Below, one piece after another: positions 1-5,406 of a DNA stretch of 15,455 nt (within the stretch, counting starts at the first letter, position 1; each line of letters starts with the position of its first letter). Source of the stretch: Candidatus Thorarchaeota archaeon (lineage in GTDB: Archaea; Asgardarchaeota; Thorarchaeia; Thorarchaeales; Thorarchaeaceae); assembly GCA_016840855.1 (NCBI GenBank), contig JAEORO010000215.1, positions 1 to 15,455 of the forward strand. The letters are read 5' to 3'. The translations under genes and the position numbers were made by a program. The notes beneath the pieces were generated by a model. The model was given only the letters and a program-made list of their open reading frames with translations, did not search any database and was not told the DNA's origin.

Positions 1-673
1 AAATGTTGTTCATGATTGTGATATTAGGACACCAGTTGACTTGTAGAACTGCTGTGTCAAAGAAACAGTCATTCACAACTGCATTTTCACATGCTTGAAG
101 AGAAACTCTCATTGGAAACGTGGTTGCCTCACTTTCAAAAAAACTACATCCCGTAACATTACAAAAAGTTGAATCTACGAACTCAGCTGCTGCCCAATCA
201 TAGACAGTCACATAAGATTCCATCATGGCTATCTCATTACATTTATCGATTCTAATCCCTCGATATTCACTGTAAATTTCGCAATTGTCAATTGTCCCAT
301 TATCACAAGAAAGTAGTTTGATTGTGTAATTCAAGGCTGTTGGTTGAAGATGACAGCCTTTGACAGTAAAATGGACATCTACATTTCGGATTTCGATGCA
401 TATCTGTGAACTAGTGATGTTCAATCCTTCAATCATATAGGGGTTGATTTCTGAGCCGTTGCCTGGCCAGCCTTGGTCAATAAAGTCTTGATTGCTGCTG
501 ATGAAAATAGGTCCATGCGAAGTATAAGATGATTCAAAGTTCCTGGCTTCGTTCAACACTGTGAAGTATTGATTAGAAAATTTAGCATCAACTACTATGC
601 TATTTAAAATCAGCAATAGTGTGATGGATAGTAGACATAACCTTGTAGAATTTGGAGTCTTTCTTATCCCCAA
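1..673 (-). CDS. Secreted right-handed parallel beta-helix (NosD / pectin-lyase-like) protein, 5' part, runs off the left edge
   Basis: Not in the ORF track; hand-translated open frame from TTG at 673-671 to the window edge: MGIRKTPNSTRLCLLSITLLLILNSIVV (signal/TM)...HGPIFISSNQDFIDQGWPGNGSEINPYMIEGLNIT...IEIRNVDVHFTVKGC...NGTIDNCEI...NVTGCSF...NITIMNNI. The H-x-PI-x-I...GWPGNG-x3-PY-x-I motif and PbH1-like repeats are typical of archaeal NosD-like proteins. SD-like GGTGG at 687-683. Confidence 0.85.
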   Translation of the reverse strand, partial: MGIRKTPNSTRLCLLSITLLLILNSIVVDAKFSNQYFTVLNEARNFESSYTSHGPIFISSNQDFIDQGWPGNGSEINPYMIEGLNITSSQICIEIRNVDVHFTVKGCHLQPTALNYTIKLLSCDNGTIDNCEIYSEYRGIRIDKCNEIAMMESYVTVYDWAAAEFVDSTFCNVTGCSFFESEATTFPMRVSLQACENAVVNDCFFDTAVLQVNWCPNITIMNNI

Positions 674-715
674 TATGGAATCCCACCGCGTTCACAGAAT
701 AAGCAACATTCAGCT

Positions 716-730
716 CTCTTAAACTTCGTG
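716..730 (-). promoter_or_regulatory. BRE/TATA promoter for the beta-helix gene
   Basis: Minus strand reads CACGAAG-TTTAAGAG, about 45 nt upstream of the TTG at 673. Confidence 0.5.
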
Positions 731-753
731 TCATGATTTTATATCTAGCAGAT

Positions 754-767
754 GAGAGAAAACGAAA
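754..767 (-). terminator. Oligo-pyrimidine (U-rich) archaeal terminator-like tract
   Basis: Minus strand TTTCGTTTTCTCTC follows 3 nt after the closing 9-bp helix of the putative RNA. Confidence 0.4.
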
Positions 768-1017
768 GGTGGGCGTAGCTCTGTGCGAGCAACGCGGTGC
801 ATTGCCGCGCCACCACCTAATGTTTTGTGCGCCGCGTTCCGAAGAACCCATTTTGAAGTTAATCGCGAGATAAGCTCCGCACGCCAAAGAGCTTTATCGA
901 CCCGCACATTGAATATGCTACGCCCTTGTTTGGTAAAGAGATGGGAGCAATCGCAGTTAACCCTTACGGTTGGCGAAACTCCAGCGTGACTCTTGACCGT
1001 GCTATAGGTGATAGGAC
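768..1017 (-). ncRNA. Putative ~250-nt structured ncRNA, family not recognised; minus strand favoured but not certain
   Basis: About 54% GC over 771-1000 by hand count, against AT-rich flanks. Perfect 9-bp inverted repeat GGGCGTAGC 771-779 / GCTACGCCC 917-925. Nested helices 782-790/900-908, 791-801/828-838 and 869-877/889-898. GUUC-UUCG-GAAC tetraloop hairpin on minus (847-836). Second domain closed by 932-940/990-998. TATA at 1047-1040 and a U-rich tail. Confidence 0.65.
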
Positions 1018-1039
1018 ATATTATACTATCACATACTTG

Positions 1040-1072
1040 TATAAAAAGTCTGTTTGCTTGTCCGTTTTTAAG
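1040..1072. promoter_or_regulatory. Back-to-back TATA boxes: minus strand for the putative ncRNA, plus strand for the small membrane ORF
   Basis: Minus AAACAGAC-TTTTTATA (TATA 1047-1040, predicted start near G1017). Plus TTTTTAAG at 1065-1072, about 45 nt before TTG 1118. Confidence 0.45.
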
Positions 1073-1117
1073 GGAAGTAGTAACATTCAGTATTGTAGCA
1101 AAATGGTGTGACAACTG

Positions 1118-1348
1118 TTGTCTATAGTTGCTGAAAAGAATAAGATGACATCTATCAAAAAAAAGATGCCTGGTTATATGGGTAGAATTATGGTGATTCT
1201 TTCAATAATTGCATTAACAAACATGTTGACTTTCATCACTATCGATTATATCGATTATTATTCAAGATTCTTCGATCTAATTATATGGATAGGAATTGGA
1301 ATCCTTGGGTACATCTTAATATATTATGAAAATAGGAAAGTGGAATGA
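1118..1348 (+). CDS. Small hypothetical membrane protein (2 TM)
   Basis: 76 aa with a Lys-rich N-terminus and two hydrophobic segments (IMVILSIIALTNMLTFITI; FFDLIIWIGIGILGYILIYY). GGTGTGA SD-like at 1105-1111. Start could instead be ATG 1145. Very AT-rich. Confidence 0.55.
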   Translation: MSIVAEKNKMTSIKKKMPGYMGRIMVILSIIALTNMLTFITIDYIDYYSRFFDLIIWIGIGILGYILIYYENRKVE

Positions 1349-1382
1349 AAATTGGTTCTGAAATCCAAGTTCATGCCGAATC

Positions 1383-1394
1383 GCAACCTTTAAT
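1383..1394 (+). promoter_or_regulatory. BRE/TATA promoter
   Basis: GCAACC-TTTAAT; the same GCAAC-then-TATA pattern recurs at 6802-6814. Predicted start about 1417-1420, at the first base of the hairpin RNA. Confidence 0.55.
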
Positions 1395-1419
1395 CGACGT
1401 TTGTCATTTTCAAGAGTAA

Positions 1420-1505
1420 GGCCAACGTAGAGAGAGAAAGACCTTAATGTGGGACTGGATGCGAAAGTCCTCTCTAAACCGGGTTTATGTTTCAAACCTT
1501 GGCCA
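1420..1505 (+). ncRNA. Putative ~86-nt structured RNA or 5' leader with tRNA-like junction geometry
   Basis: GGCCAA 1420-1425 / TTGGCC 1499-1504; TAGAGA 1428-1433 / TCTCTA 1471-1476; GGACT 1452-1456 / AGTCC 1466-1470; GGTTT 1482-1486 / AAACC 1494-1498 with a 7-nt loop. All four helices are Watson-Crick and mutually compatible. Confidence 0.6.
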
Positions 1506-1535
1506 GATCATCAGTATTATTGGAGACATGACTAT

Positions 1536-3356
1536 ATGCGTGTATATCTAGACGCGAACTTCTTCATATCGGGCTTTTCAGAGCGGCCTAAAGATGTGAC
1601 TATTGTGAAAAAGGCCGCAGACAACGCAGGTATGGAATTATGGATTACCCGACAGGTATTCCAAGAATTACGTTGGTACCTAAGGAGAGAGGCTGAGAAT
1701 ATTGTCCAGATTGATGAAACACTTTCAAAGGATATTAAATCCTTCATGGATAGCATCACTCGACCAGAAACCTCACTACCTCAACCAAACGATATGTCTC
1801 TAATTTTGGGTGCAATGCGAAACAAGAATTCGAAAATTGTCACGAGTGATATGAAATTACTAAACACAATTCAGGACTTGAAGGTTCCAGTTGAGGGAAT
1901 TGTTGGTTCAGCATTTGTTTTGGAATTGATGGAATCAGTCGAGGACGAGAAATTACAGAAAGACTTGTCAATTATTAGAGATCGTATTTACTCAGAAGAG
2001 GTCAGATATAGTATTGCTCGACAAGAGTCTTATGACCCAGTCACCAGGATACGCATTATAGAGGATCATGCACTTCGAGTTCTAAGAACAGTGAAGAGAC
2101 CGGCTGAAGGTCTCGATAGAAAACTGTCTAAGGGGCAACCACTTTTTGTGTTGGATTTTCTAGAGGATATCAAAGCTGATATCCCAAATATGTTCGATGA
2201 CTTCAGGGAAGGGAAGTATGACAGCCTTGCGCATGAAATTGAAGCAGTCCAGAATGAGATTGAGCGCTTATTGATAGTGTCAACACTAACAGAGGATAGC
2301 GAAACACATGGTCAGCTTGTCAGGCATGCATCAGACTTGACATTGTTCCTCTATTACCTTGAAGCAATTTGCCACTTATATCGTGGAACTCGACAGGGCA
2401 TTGAAGATGCTCTCACAATCAGTGATGAAGCATTTAGATTGCTAATGTTTGCAGAGGTGACTAACGATGAACTAAAAGCCACGGTATTCTTTGTCAGAAT
2501 TGTCCTTGCACTCATTAGAGAAGATTATGAAGAAATTGACTACTATTATAGCCTCTATGATAGTATGATAAATAGGATAGGACTCACAGATATGCTAGAG
2601 ACCTCAGAAGGCCTGTATATCACTATGCAAATCTTGAGGAAGTTCATGGGTGGTTTCAGTCTTACAAAGAACAAATTGCAGCATCCAGATGTAACAATGT
2701 CAATGCTTAATGACATAGCTAAATATTCAATCCAATTTGATGACCACGATAATGCTTGGCAATTAGCTGTAACAGCTTACAAGATAGGTGTTGCATATAA
2801 TAAAGAAGAAGGAGCACTCGGTTCCTTTTTGATGCTTTACAAGGTATCTTCTTCTTCTCACGATCGGTTCAAGCCAGCTCTTGAAAAAATTGCAGAACAT
2901 GCATTGAAGGCATTTGTAAAGAAGGGATGGAATACATCGCAAATCACACCAATACTAAATGAAATACAAGGGCAGTTTCCATCTATTGAAGGCATGGCAA
3001 CAAACGGTCCAGTGGATCAGGATAAGCTAAGGAAAGAACTGACAGGATGGATGGATGTTCTCTCAGTTGAAACCATTGATAATGTTGAGATGCTTGTGGT
3101 CAGGAATGACAAGTTACAGACTCGTATTGCAATTGCAGTTGGCAATCATCCAGATCTGGGTACACTCAAGACTGGTCACAAGGTAGCACTAACAAATGGT
3201 AGCTATGAAGTAACGGATGCAAATCCTGAAGTAGTCAAAAAGTATTCTGTAGTATTGATGATTACTCCAAGCGAAAGTGCAGAGATATCATTTGAAGGCG
3301 AATATGGATTTAGCTGTTTGAAGTTAGCTGAACCAGCTGCAGAAGCAAAATCATAG
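1536..3356 (+). CDS. PIN-domain ribonuclease fused to an alpha-helical (TPR-like) region and a C-terminal beta-rich (OB-like) domain
   Basis: Start re-called at ATG 1536 (GGAGA SD at 1522-1526). PIN motifs with all four acidic residues: RVYLDANFF, ITRQVFQEL, PNDMSLI, IVTSDMKL. Middle region is amphipathic helices (LYYLEAICHLYRG...IEDALTISDEAFRL; DNAWQLAVTAYKIG). Last ~110 aa are beta-strand-like (LKTGHKVALTNGSYEV). PIN is well supported; TPR and OB calls are inference. Confidence 0.8.
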   Translation: MRVYLDANFFISGFSERPKDVTIVKKAADNAGMELWITRQVFQELRWYLRREAENIVQIDETLSKDIKSFMDSITRPETSLPQPNDMSLILGAMRNKNSKIVTSDMKLLNTIQDLKVPVEGIVGSAFVLELMESVEDEKLQKDLSIIRDRIYSEEVRYSIARQESYDPVTRIRIIEDHALRVLRTVKRPAEGLDRKLSKGQPLFVLDFLEDIKADIPNMFDDFREGKYDSLAHEIEAVQNEIERLLIVSTLTEDSETHGQLVRHASDLTLFLYYLEAICHLYRGTRQGIEDALTISDEAFRLLMFAEVTNDELKATVFFVRIVLALIREDYEEIDYYYSLYDSMINRIGLTDMLETSEGLYITMQILRKFMGGFSLTKNKLQHPDVTMSMLNDIAKYSIQFDDHDNAWQLAVTAYKIGVAYNKEEGALGSFLMLYKVSSSSHDRFKPALEKIAEHALKAFVKKGWNTSQITPILNEIQGQFPSIEGMATNGPVDQDKLRKELTGWMDVLSVETIDNVEMLVVRNDKLQTRIAIAVGNHPDLGTLKTGHKVALTNGSYEVTDANPEVVKKYSVVLMITPSESAEISFEGEYGFSCLKLAEPAAEAKS

Positions 3357-4264: not shown

Positions 4265-4290
4265 CGTTTTTACCTAATTAGTCATTGAGA

Positions 4291-5406
4291 ATGACAACTC
4301 CAAATATCACTGAAGGAAGGATGATTTTCAAGGTCCTTGTGGTAGGCAATGACTTACCACTGCAAACAGGGTTTCTAAGTAGAGCATCTGGAGACCGTGT
4401 TTCCGCCCAATTGTATAATACGATTGGTTTGACTTTAGGAGTAGTGAAACTTGACTATCCAAAGAACCTAAGTGTCATTCTCCAACTATGGTCAATACCT
4501 TTCTCTGATAGATTGGAAGGACTATCTCGTTCTTTTACTAAAGGACATCGTGCAATCATCCTAATTCTAAAGCCAAATGAAATCGATGATGTACCTGAGA
4601 TGTTCAATCGCCTTTCTCTGAGTCAAGATACCTCCCTAATGGTGGTATTTATTGGATCTGTGAGAGAAGCAGAAGCAGCCGCATATCAATTAGATGCGTT
4701 CATCAAAGCTCAAATGCCTGTTCACGCGGTCCAAGACATTGAAGAAATAATCAGATATGTCGCAGATAGCCTATGTTCTAATAGCTCCTCGAAAAGTCCA
4801 CTTCCTATGATAGTTGCTCTTGACGAGCATGTTTGCCCTGTCTTTGAACCTGTTATTCCCGAACCACTAACTCCACCAAACTCAATTGAAGAAATCGATG
4901 AAATTCGGTCTATAGCAAATGAACTGGGACTTCGAATTGTCAATGAATCATGTGCAATTGAGCTAGATGAGGGAGTTTTATGGGTGTGCATGAAAACCAG
5001 TGCTATTCGGATGGAACCAGAGATTTGTCGACTTTGTTCACATAGATGTAAGAGACAGTCTAACATCTGTATTGTTGGAACTGATACAGGCTGGTCTTCA
5101 ACCAATCTTGGATCGCGAGCTTTGCTTACTGTGGCAAAGATCTATGCGCTTGCAGCAAGGATGTTGCCTTCTCATGTAAAGAAGCAAATTCAAAGAGCAA
5201 CAATCTGCACACGATTTGATCCAAATCCAGCAATACCAATCGAAGATATCCCAGATGAGATTCTTCTTGGTTTCAAGGAAATGGATTCAGGGAAGTCACT
5301 TCTCGAAGCAGCAAGAGCACGAGTTAATGATGGCAGACTTTCGAATGATGTTTTCAATATGCTAAAAAAGAAATTACATAACATTGATTCCTCCGTCAGT
5401 CATTGA
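4291..5406 (+). CDS. Degenerate Rab/Ras-like small-GTPase fold (pseudo-GTPase) with a C-terminal Cys-rich domain
   Basis: FKVLVVG, YNTIG, VILQLW, DRLEGLSRSFTKGHRAIILIL align by eye to Rab FKxxxxG, YxxTIG, xxLQIWDTAGQERF, xxSYYRGAxGIILV. P-loop GK[ST], DxxG and NKxD are absent. CRLCSHRC-x6-C in the C-terminal half. ATG 4291 preferred over TTG 4285. Confidence 0.7.
   Translation: MTTPNITEGRMIFKVLVVGNDLPLQTGFLSRASGDRVSAQLYNTIGLTLGVVKLDYPKNLSVILQLWSIPFSDRLEGLSRSFTKGHRAIILILKPNEIDDVPEMFNRLSLSQDTSLMVVFIGSVREAEAAAYQLDAFIKAQMPVHAVQDIEEIIRYVADSLCSNSSSKSPLPMIVALDEHVCPVFEPVIPEPLTPPNSIEEIDEIRSIANELGLRIVNESCAIELDEGVLWVCMKTSAIRMEPEICRLCSHRCKRQSNICIVGTDTGWSSTNLGSRALLTVAKIYALAARMLPSHVKKQIQRATICTRFDPNPAIPIEDIPDEILLGFKEMDSGKSLLEAARARVNDGRLSNDVFNMLKKKLHNIDSSVSH

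Follow-up and report, generated by a model that had tools for sequence, protein, structure and literature searches.

A single-copy, highly structured non-coding RNA gene specific to one family of Thorarchaeota

The large orphan structured non-coding RNAs OLE, GOLLD, ROOL and raiA are bacterial, and all of them are represented in Rfam. T-box leaders are likewise bacterial and contain UGGN tetrads that pair with the NCCA 3' ends of tRNAs. The genes for tRNA and tmRNA encode an acceptor end and serve as integration targets. Among known organisms, Asgard archaea are the nearest relatives of eukaryotes and, to our knowledge, almost nothing is known about their non-coding RNAs.

The window analyzed here is a stretch of 15,455 nucleotides from a Thorarchaeota genome (contig JAEORO010000215.1, assembly GCA_016840855.1). 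Its minus strand, from about position 1017 to 755, is a stand-alone gene for a highly structured non-coding RNA of ~250 nt that is single-copy, vertically inherited and specific to one Thorarchaeota family. A full-text literature search found no published description of this RNA, and it represents a new RNA family; novelty is claimed for the family, not for a mechanism. An initial annotation made from the sequence had proposed an unannotated, multi-domain structured RNA of ~250 nt at this position, a proposal that is borne out by conservation, covariation, a strand test, the TATA box and RNA-library contigs. The GC island that it had described (~54% over 771-1000) measures 53.5%, with a GC content of 55% in positions 768-927 and of 37.9% (1-700) and 33.1% (1050-1448) in the flanks. 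The 160-nt 3' part of the RNA (window 768-927) is referred to as the core and was the basis of the covariance model. The features of the gene, in the order of transcription, are:

1040..1047, minus strand: TATA-like box TTTTTATA, putative promoter
999..1017, minus strand: predicted AU-rich 5' leader, in which the conserved element UAAUAU is present
932..998, minus strand: 5' domain, one long irregular hairpin (minimum free energy fold and 12-sequence genus consensus)
926..931, minus strand: A-rich linker AAACAA, joining the 5' domain to the core
917..925, minus strand: 5' strand of P1, GGGCGUAGC, first three G invariant, pairs with 779-771
900..907, minus strand: 5' strand of P2, GUGCGGGU, after a 9-nt internal loop, pairs with 790-783
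869..898, minus strand: hairpin P3 with an 11-nt loop (888-878), UUUGGCGUGCG
840..865, minus strand: hairpin P4 (865-863/842-840 and 860-856/849-845) with the loop CAAAAU (855-850)
791..838, minus strand: P5 (838-832/797-791) and P6 (830-829/800-799), capped by a 26-nt loop
783..790, minus strand: 3' strand of P2, GCUCGCAC, pairs with 907-900
771..779, minus strand: 3' strand of P1, GCUACGCCC, GCCC invariant
755..770, minus strand: ACC tail (770-768) followed by a U/C-rich tract (767-755), putative terminator

Like OLE, GOLLD, ROOL and raiA, the RNA is long and multi-helical, has strong covariation and invariant loops, is lineage-restricted and was found from sequence alone; unlike them it is archaeal (Asgard), is confined to one family and has no match to their Rfam models. 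With the bacterial Y RNAs (YrlA) it appears to share the character of a stable non-coding RNA with paired ends and a tRNA-like element, but it is much larger, is without T-arm mimicry and has no Ro/TROVE gene beside its locus. The resemblance to tRNA and tmRNA genes consists of a G-C-rich closing stem (GGGC.../...GCCC) with an unpaired ACC after it, in the place of the ACCA of a tRNA, a four-armed junction, the organization as a single gene with its own putative promoter, and the duplication of the 3' end on both sides of inserted foreign genes, which is also seen where tRNA and tmRNA genes serve for integration. However, the core is 160 nt long, the closing stem has 9 bp, there is no T-, D- or anticodon loop and no tag frame, a structured domain of 70-130 nt lies 5' of the stem, and no integrase was seen in the inserts.

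The covariance model identified a full-length copy in 24 out of 26 genomes sampled from the window's family, belonging to 13 genera, and in none of 124 genomes of 26 other Asgard families. A further genus (g9) carries the RNA with a score of 110.9 bits, and blastn detected it in 24 of 36 genomes from the family and in 0 of 24 others. Two family genomes lack it, G035 (97% complete) and G036 (93% complete), as does the sister family f2. The own genome of the window contains one match, and a full copy is present once per genome in all 25 positive genomes, the own genome included; the sole exception to single copy is a second, partial match at a contig end in G013. A repeat or miniature mobile element, which the initial annotation had linked to many dispersed copies, was discarded on these counts. 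The similarity of the RNA falls from genus to family in step with that of a neighboring protein, as expected of vertical descent. Searches beyond the family gave no supported homologue: a gapped pattern of the two conserved loops matched 23 viral and at least 80 metagenome loci, chance matches with no model match among those listed; an exact 17-mer matched 10 viral loci, none of which matched the covariance model; a 17-mer match in one genome outside the family (G137) is due to chance, lies in AT-rich, coding-like sequence and has no model match; and three bacterial 19-mer matches (L034, L044 and L053) have no nhmmer match.

Covariation was assessed in an alignment of 37 core sequences, from which three of the 40 non-redundant rows (L012, L020 and L059) were left out as they are cut by contig ends, and was compared with 500 shuffles and with slid partners. 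Compensatory double changes occur in 30 out of 45 predicted pairs, a number reached by none of the 500 shuffles, and 97.4% of cells are paired compared with 84.0% in the shuffles and 32-45% with slid partners. The helices are thus conserved across homologues far beyond chance, and the compensatory changes whose absence had been named as evidence against a functional RNA are strong. Among 1454 cells, 169 are G.U and 4 are A.C, which fixes the minus strand and settles an earlier suspicion that some wobbles favor the plus strand. The single-sequence folding test that had been suggested as a check gave a modest signal on both strands, with z-scores of -2.76 on the minus strand (3 of 200 shuffles fold equally well) and -1.89 on the plus strand (8 of 200).

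Helices P2, P3, P4 and P5/P6 meet in a four-way junction that makes up the core and is closed by the 9-bp G-C-rich helix P1. The perfect 9-bp closing helix described initially is present as 925-917 with 779-771, with double compensatory changes in five of nine pairs and 98.8% of cells paired. The second helix, described with two G.U pairs on the minus strand, corresponds to P2, of which RNAalifold keeps six pairs (double changes in three of these six modelled pairs, 97.7% of cells paired). The bulged hairpin at 898-869 is kept in the consensus as P3 (double changes in 8 of 10 pairs), and the helix drawn at 838-828/801-791 stands as seven plus two supported pairs with one mismatch (P5/P6, double changes in 8 of 9 pairs). 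P4 shows double changes in six of seven pairs, and its two helices have 100% and 95.1% of cells paired. A cUUCGg hairpin proposed at 847-836 can be drawn in this sequence but did not hold up in the alignment: UUCG is not conserved, and the bases involved covary elsewhere (849-845/860-856, 842-840/865-863 and 838-832/797-791).

The two G-rich loops, UUUGGCGUGCG in P3 and UUAGGUGGUGGCGCGGCAA in P5/P6, are invariant in the alignment and have a UGGCG...GCGG motif in common. Within the P3 loop, UGGCGUGC is identical in 37 out of 37 sequences, as is UUAGGUGGUGGCGCGGCAA (820-802) within the large loop, where the preceding residue A821 is only nearly invariant. Two genera found later carry variants of the large loop, UUAUGGUGGUGG in one and UAGGUGGC---GCGGCGA in the other. 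The latter has only three GG runs, so the G-quadruplex pattern that can be read in the loop (GG-U-GG-U-GG-CGC-GG) is not conserved and was rejected. A small helix drawn inside the 26-nt loop never varies and is therefore unsupported. Two tertiary contacts were also dismissed: between UUUG of the P3 loop and CAAA of the P4 loop, where the variants do not covary by eye, and between CGCCAA of the 5' domain and UUGGCG of the P3 loop, where the 5'-domain side is not conserved. The base of P1 (GGG/CCC) and the 3' overhang ACC never change among the 37 sequences, CCCACC being identical, and followed by U residues, in all of them. The U-rich tract noted after the RNA follows position 768, and conservation drops abruptly after it. 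Termination at U-tracts is established archaeal biology, and by this analogy transcription probably ends within the tract.

Upstream of the core, the AAACAA linker noted initially is found at 931-926 and is A-rich among homologues while varying in sequence. The 5' domain had been described as a three-way junction, but both the minimum free energy fold and the consensus of 12 genus sequences give a single long irregular hairpin (998-997/933-932, 994-989/941-936, 982-978/948-944 and 976-973/954-951) with the apical motif AACCGUAAGGGUUAAC at about 972-957. Pair 981/945 alternates between G-C (6) and A-U (5) among the 12 genus sequences, and the motif RACC-NNAA-GNU-WUAAC was present in most of the 20 lineages that were read. 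The length of the domain differs between genera through large insertions. The small 5' hairpin drawn at 1017-999 is not conserved in close relatives. A sequence ~24 nt upstream had also been noted; it is the TATA-like box TTTTTATA at 1047-1040 on the minus strand. The box is conserved across genera; in most lineages a TTTWTAT-type box precedes the first 5'-domain helix by 35-43 nt, and in one clade by 22-25 nt. Because of the usual archaeal TATA spacing, transcription would be expected to start near 1017 (± about 5), ~24 nt after the box. The proposal that the RNA has its own promoter and a U-tract terminator thus finds support, at the level of sequence, in the cross-genus TATA box and the sharp edges of conservation. 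Contigs from RNA libraries (four runs, three studies) cover only 779-982 of window 600-1500, and one of them (806-982) bridges the 5' domain and the core; the runs were chosen for sharing words with this stretch, and the contigs show neither strand, ends nor level.

Overall, the best explanation, to which we give about an even chance, is a family-specific non-coding RNA gene whose product acts in trans as a scaffold for RNA and protein and has a tRNA-like end. The chance that the region is instead an accidental GC island, a gene for a small protein or a miniature mobile element is next to negligible, and the data refute this alternative. ORFs of 68-127 aa can be drawn over the RNA in the window and the folding z-score is only -2.76, but the covariation is overwhelming, there is one copy per genome with no dispersed copies, and no frame is open across all sequences, with stops in all six frames in 8 out of 37 cores. 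The earlier statement that the region contains no credible ORF agrees with this absence of a conserved reading frame. Gap runs in the core alignment are mostly 1-2 nt long. A small ORF after an SD-like motif was set aside, its AUG being confined to the window's genus (CAAGCG in other genera). It is also extremely unlikely that the RNA is a very divergent member of the SRP, RNase P/MRP, tRNA/tmRNA-like, H/ACA or C/D guide classes, even though a length of ~250 nt, single-copy housekeeping-like conservation, a closing stem near the ends and an ACC tail would suit such a class. The Rfam search that had been proposed gave no significant match on the RNA: Rfam 15 (4227 models) had no match at the gathering score in the whole window and none even at E <= 10 in window 600-1200, and six weak matches in 12 homologous loci do not overlap the RNA. 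ARAGORN found no tRNA or tmRNA gene in the window, and the RNase P RNA (C183:32492-32832, 163.9 bits, RF00373) and the SRP RNA (C216:1871-2179, full length, 87.7 bits, E = 4e-20, RF01857) of the same genome are located elsewhere, consistent with the initial failure to match the RNA to tRNA, SRP or RNase P by eye. Inspection of the homologues by eye revealed no C/D boxes and no conserved ACA box in the linker, and there is no T-loop motif beside the 3' strand of the closing stem and no D-loop or anticodon-like loop in the RNA.

The role of the downstream genes and of the inserted genes bears on three further alternatives. The neighbors of the RNA include a beta-helix protein, a PIN-domain protein and an FtsX-like permease, among others. 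The suggestion that the RNA is a long leader of the beta-helix gene was abandoned, as few genomes have that gene after the RNA; it is preceded by a TATA-like box of its own, ATATAAAA (744-737, minus strand), which is read as its putative promoter. A cis-acting, riboswitch- or T-box-like leader of an operon encoding a ~190-aa membrane-anchored protein and, after it, an FtsX-like permease, in which formation of P1 beside the U-tract would choose between termination and read-through, is the main, though unlikely, rival. The ~190-aa gene lies on the same strand within 350 nt downstream of the RNA in 14 genomes and 1.3-6.2 kb downstream, with inserts between, in seven more. The distributions match, with the protein encoded in 23 and the RNA in 24 of the 26 family genomes and neither in any of the 124 others; position and distribution together are what a cis-regulatory leader would also show. 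G035 and G036 lack both, a same-strand ORF starts within 450 nt after the RNA in 40 out of 47 non-redundant loci (which are related, not independent), and P1 encloses the whole core with the U-tract directly after it, like an aptamer and its expression platform. However, a promoter-like conserved motif, GAGCGAGCTAATTAAGG, stands between the RNA and the ~190-aa ORF, 25-35 nt before the ATG, which fits an independent leaderless mRNA; the RNA is 86-98% identical where unrelated genes are inserted directly after it, the window's own genome (beta-helix) included; G029 has the RNA and no ~190-aa match; the downstream gene is convergent at three loci; and the RNA-library contigs end inside the RNA, a weak point. 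A related proposal, that the RNA mimics a tRNA end while its UGGC/UGGU loops capture the NCCA ends of uncharged tRNAs and couple translation status to the adjacent operon, is by analogy conceivable and very unlikely. In that case RNase P, RNase Z and the CCA-adding enzyme would mature the GGGC...GCCC-ACC stem, and the operon controlled would be the co-inherited membrane-protein and FtsX-permease genes. As in T-box leaders, the invariant loops hold UGGN tetrads (UGGC twice, UGGU once) and the RNA has a transporter-type operon downstream on the same strand, but it has no recognizable specifier loop, Stem I platform or antiterminator/terminator switch and no Rfam T-box match, and the gene downstream appears to have its own promoter. 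Quite improbable, too, is that the RNA is part or a dedicated target of a site-specific gene-capture system and perhaps guides recombination in the manner of an IS110 bridge or omega RNA. Four genomes of one genus contain a 33-35-nt copy of the RNA 3' end and U-tract 1.5-2.6 kb downstream of the intact gene; in each, the partial copy and the intact 3' end bracket unrelated cargo at exactly the same insertion point (a Zn-ribbon and a 312-aa protein; an M3 peptidase; two LRR proteins; a Ras-like GTPase and two others), and all cargo genes are oriented like the RNA. This arrangement and the two invariant loops would suit a capture system, but integration at any conserved small-RNA gene usually leaves such partial copies beside the insert and needs no role of the RNA. 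The hallmarks of mobile-element guide RNAs (omega, bridge, retron) were not found: no integrase, transposase, IscB/TnpB or reverse transcriptase was found in the inserts or beside the RNA, which is single-copy with a similarity pattern of vertical descent, and none of the 23 plus 10 candidate viral loci matched the model. We infer that foreign genes are inserted by recombination at the gene's 3' end, as they are at tRNA and tmRNA genes.

Under the preferred reading, the RNA would act in trans as a stable scaffold, probably within an RNA-protein particle. A protein or a short C-rich single strand would make contact with the two invariant loops and the GGG/CCC-ACC end, whereas the helices would need only to keep their shape and therefore covary. 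The closing stem with ACC would correspond to a tRNA acceptor end minus the last A, and such an end may be processed by the enzymes that mature tRNAs (RNase P, RNase Z and the CCA-adding enzyme). It is from the closing stem and the ACC alone that the RNA may be read as tRNA-like, and the combination of this end with a trans-acting scaffold is our best guess at its role.

Tests of neighbors, own-genome complements and 16S rRNA identified no partner protein or target. The 635-aa PIN-domain neighbor was rejected as a partner, as its occurrence in 78 of 151 Asgard genomes greatly exceeds the range of the RNA and as it is not adjacent to the RNA in many genera of the family. In the own genome (92% complete, without 16S and 23S rRNA), probes of 10-15 nt with 0-2 mismatches allowed revealed, besides the gene itself, no long stretch complementary to one or the other invariant loop. 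Pairing with 16S rRNA, or Shine-Dalgarno mimicry, was rejected as well, since the duplexes of the loops with 16S rRNA of the family are no better than those of shuffled loops: the large loop was matched or beaten by 9-10 of 50 shuffles and the small loop by 19 and 48 of 50. A complete Thorarchaeota chromosome gave no 16S match and a 23S fragment only. AGGUGGU could pair with AUCACCU at the 3' end of 16S rRNA, although this is not the best site.

A large and elaborate RNA is present in environmental RNA libraries, and at least 13 genera have kept its loops nearly unchanged. RNAs conserved to this degree usually operate together with core cell machinery or with a dedicated protein partner. The RNA is a marker gene for its Thorarchaeota family, and, as a natural hot spot of insertion, it illustrates the way in which these genomes gain genes. 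It provides a concrete target for RNA-centered pull-downs and structural work in Thorarchaeota.

The structured RNA on the minus strand of the window (~755–1017) comprises a 3′ core of 160 nt, with helices P1–P6, and a variable 5′ domain. The following features were identified in and beside it:

998–932, minus strand: 5′ domain upstream of P1, a single long irregular hairpin in the MFE prediction as well as in the consensus from 12 sequences of the genus
931–926, minus strand: A-rich linker upstream of P1
925–917 / 779–771, minus strand: helix P1, 9 bp, with invariant GGG/CCC
between P1 and P2, minus strand: internal loop, 9 nt on the 5′ side
907–900 / 790–783, minus strand: helix P2
898–869, minus strand: hairpin P3 with an 11-nt loop, UUUGGCGUGCG
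865–840, minus strand: hairpin P4 with the loop CAAAAU
838–829 / 800–791, minus strand: P5/P6 with a 26-nt loop
820–802, minus strand: segment UUAGGUGGUGGCGCGGCAA of the P5/P6 loop, identical in 37/37 sequences
770–768, minus strand: ACC tail, invariant and unpaired
767–755, minus strand: U/C-rich tract, beyond which similarity ceases entirely
737–744, minus strand: TATA-like box ATATAAAA, located 25–30 nt past the U-tract, with the start of the beta-helix ORF (673) about 65 nt further on

Helices P2, P3, P4 and P5/P6 meet in a four-way junction, and a UGGCG...GCGG motif is common to the loops of P3 and P5/P6. The 5′ domain differs in length among genera and keeps the motif RACC-NNAA-GNU-WUAAC; one pair in the genus consensus is clearly compensating (G-C in six sequences, A-U in five). 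Its single irregular hairpin replaces the three-way junction drawn in the initial annotation, and the cUUCGg hairpin proposed there is unsupported.

The G+C content of the core (55% at 768–927) is high compared with 38% at 1–700 and 33% at 1050–1448. The folding test against shuffled sequences that had been proposed earlier gave z = −2.76 for the minus strand (3 out of 200 shuffles equally stable) and z = −1.89 for the plus strand (8 out of 200). This advantage of the single sequence is only moderate, and the case therefore rests on the comparison among relatives. A total of 40 non-redundant homologues were gathered, of which three cut by contig ends were left out and 37 were aligned with MAFFT blind to structure. 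RNAalifold predicted 45 pairs, and in 30 of these both sides have changed in some sequences with the pair retained, which are the compensatory changes that the initial annotation had proposed to look for. Standard pairs occupy 97.4% of 1598 cells in the alignment of homologues (A2), compared with 84.0% after column shuffling (the observed value was reached in 0/500 shuffles) and 32–45% when partners were slid by 1–3 columns, and the covariation score in the A2 test was 0.504 versus 0.245. Compensatory changes were found in all helices except one; a small helix inside the invariant loop is unsupported, as it never varies. Among 1454 cells there are 169 G.U compared with 4 A.C, and the share of paired cells is 97.1% for minus and 85.8% for plus; therefore the RNA is encoded on the minus strand of the window, which settles the earlier reservation about the strand in favor of minus.

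No Rfam family matched the 15,455 bases of the window at gathering scores or window 600–1200 at E ≤ 10, none overlapped the RNA at 12 homologous loci, and no tRNA was found in the window, in agreement with the earlier judgment by eye that no known class fits. RNase P RNA and SRP RNA were rejected since the window's own genome encodes both at other places. A coding gene was also rejected: every one of the six frames is interrupted by stops in 8 of the 37 cores, none stays open across all sequences, and most gaps span 1–2 nt. With homologues throughout the family, covariation and the G.U test, this bears out the main reading of the initial annotation, a structured RNA gene on the minus strand. 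A full-text literature search found no published description of the RNA; supplementary files could contain unnamed candidate lists.

The assembly that contains the window comprises 259 contigs (3.36 Mb, 92% complete) and carries the element once. Its set of RNA genes is incomplete: a search for 16S and 23S rRNA motifs gave none, and ARAGORN without intron search gave only 24 tRNAs. Blastn identified the element in 24/36 genomes of the same family (Thorarchaeaceae) compared with 0/24 genomes from 17 other families. When the 3′ core was searched for with a covariance model (R1), 24 out of 26 sampled family genomes within 13 genera gave one full-length copy each, and 124 genomes from 26 further Asgard families gave none, stricter filters being in force there. 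The remaining two genomes, G035 (97% complete) and G036 (93% complete), remained without a model match (E ≤ 10) when five genomes were searched under untightened filters, and a second genome from the genus of G035 carries the RNA (110.9 bits). The single copy per genome rules out a repeat or a mobile element, which answers the earlier concern about many dispersed copies (a MITE). A 17-mer from the large loop (≤1 mismatch) occurs in 55/85 family genomes compared with 1/314 others, the single outside match being attributed to chance (AT-rich coding-like sequence without a model match). The invariant 19-mer is common to 42 loci, 39 archaeal and three bacterial; the bacterial loci lack any profile match and were rejected as chance matches, and the archaeal loci are mostly labelled Candidatus Thorarchaeota, with a few Promethearchaeota, Hermodarchaeota or "uncultured archaeon". 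None of the viral contigs searched carries the RNA.

A TTTWTAT-type box (TTTTTATA, 1047–1040) is conserved across genera 35–43 nt ahead of the first helix of the 5′ domain (22–25 nt in one clade). Based on the usual archaeal promoter spacing, the RNA would start near 1017 and have a length of about 250 nt. Five RNA libraries contain a minor fraction of the words from window 600–1500, and contigs from four of them (three studies) cover 779–982 only, leaving the flanking genes uncovered. The 5′ domain and the core are bridged by one contig (806–982, two differences), and contigs of relatives continue into their respective 5′ domains. These contigs, which carry no strand, end or level information and come from runs selected by words from the same stretch, are supporting evidence for expression, not proof.

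The ancestral downstream neighbor of the RNA is a same-strand gene for a protein of ~190 aa without Pfam matches; by eye, its sequence begins like a signal peptide and contains a hydrophobic stretch at the C-terminal end. The gene of an FtsX-like permease (about 900 aa) comes next. The profile of the ~190-aa protein was found in 23/26 family genomes compared with 0/124 others, the same distribution as that of the RNA. Its gene starts ≤350 nt past the RNA in 14 genomes and 1.3–6.2 kb past it in seven, and lies on another contig in two (C162:1652–2086 in the window's own genome) and 13 kb away on the opposite strand in one. This synteny and shared distribution favor the main rival explanation, that the RNA is a leader controlling the downstream operon in cis, which we nevertheless regard as unlikely, because a promoter-like motif intervenes and unrelated genes have been inserted after the RNA. 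The motif, TGCG..AA.GAGCGAGCTAATTAAGG, is conserved 25–35 nt ahead of the ~190-aa ATG in several genera (intergenic regions of loci L025, L015, L017, L018 and L003; about 1540–1570 on C162; the protein alignment A4 includes L025:4882–5439 and 14 other loci). It is probably a promoter plus regulator site, and the ~190-aa protein is probably expressed from a separate leaderless mRNA. Downstream of the RNA in the window, a beta-helix gene (2–673, minus strand) has intervened, and ATATAAAA is likely its promoter; this minus-strand box accounts for the plus-strand TTTTATAT noted earlier, and the option of a leader of the beta-helix gene is unsupported.

Upstream and divergent from the RNA in the window's genus lies the gene for a 635-aa protein (1449–3356, plus strand) with weak N-terminal PIN matches only, 68–95% identity within the family and 25–31% in many other Asgard families. 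It is present in 78/151 Asgard genomes and not adjacent to the RNA in many family genera; it is a conserved Asgard protein without an assigned role, and we read its position beside the RNA as local synteny. A 76-aa hydrophobic ORF (1118–1348, plus strand) between the RNA promoter and this gene was found in three close genomes only (G009, G005 and the window's own; tblastn 53–58% identity); the others have a shorter spacer without the ORF.

Four genomes of the window's genus carry a 33–35-nt copy of the RNA 3′ end and U-tract, from GCACCGCG to CCCACC with a few mutations, 1.5–2.6 kb past the intact gene. The inserts lie between the RNA copies; in the window, the equivalent place would fall to the left of position 1:

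L045:3191–4755, insert in a relative
L046:1822–3766, insert in a relative
L059:4255–6937, insert in a relative
L064:104–2305, insert in a relative

The cargo differs per genome (a Zn-ribbon and a 312-aa protein; an M3 peptidase; two LRR proteins; a Ras-like GTPase and two others), and all genes are oriented as the RNA. Roc/Ras-like small GTPases are typical Asgard eukaryote-like proteins, and such domains were found in the inserted cargo (L064:1709–2350) and in the window (4285–5406, plus strand, weak Roc match). Integration at tRNA and tmRNA genes leaves the same footprint of partial 3′-end copies around inserts, and the RNA 3′ end resembles the gene-capture hot spots known from tRNA genes. 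Two contigs terminate within the conserved core (G013:C20:62945–63021 and G021:C30:9591–9650); these are assembly breaks at the RNA gene, perhaps because strains differ at this hot spot for insertions. The inserts are the sole hint of a role of the RNA in recombination, which we consider very improbable, and no integrase was found among their cargo genes.

The results show a shape-constrained RNA, probably stable and independently transcribed, the helices of which covary and the two loops, stem base and ACC tail of which are frozen. The frozen parts would be contact surfaces for a partner, from which we infer, with about even confidence, an RNA–protein particle acting in trans or an RNA that binds a short C-rich strand. 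The search for a target gave none: no long complement to the loops was found in the window's own genome, and loop pairing to the 16S rRNA of the family was no better than that of shuffled loops. The tRNA-like end suggests that the RNA may be matured by tRNA enzymes. We conclude that the RNA represents a genuine RNA family of the Thorarchaeota that had not been described before.
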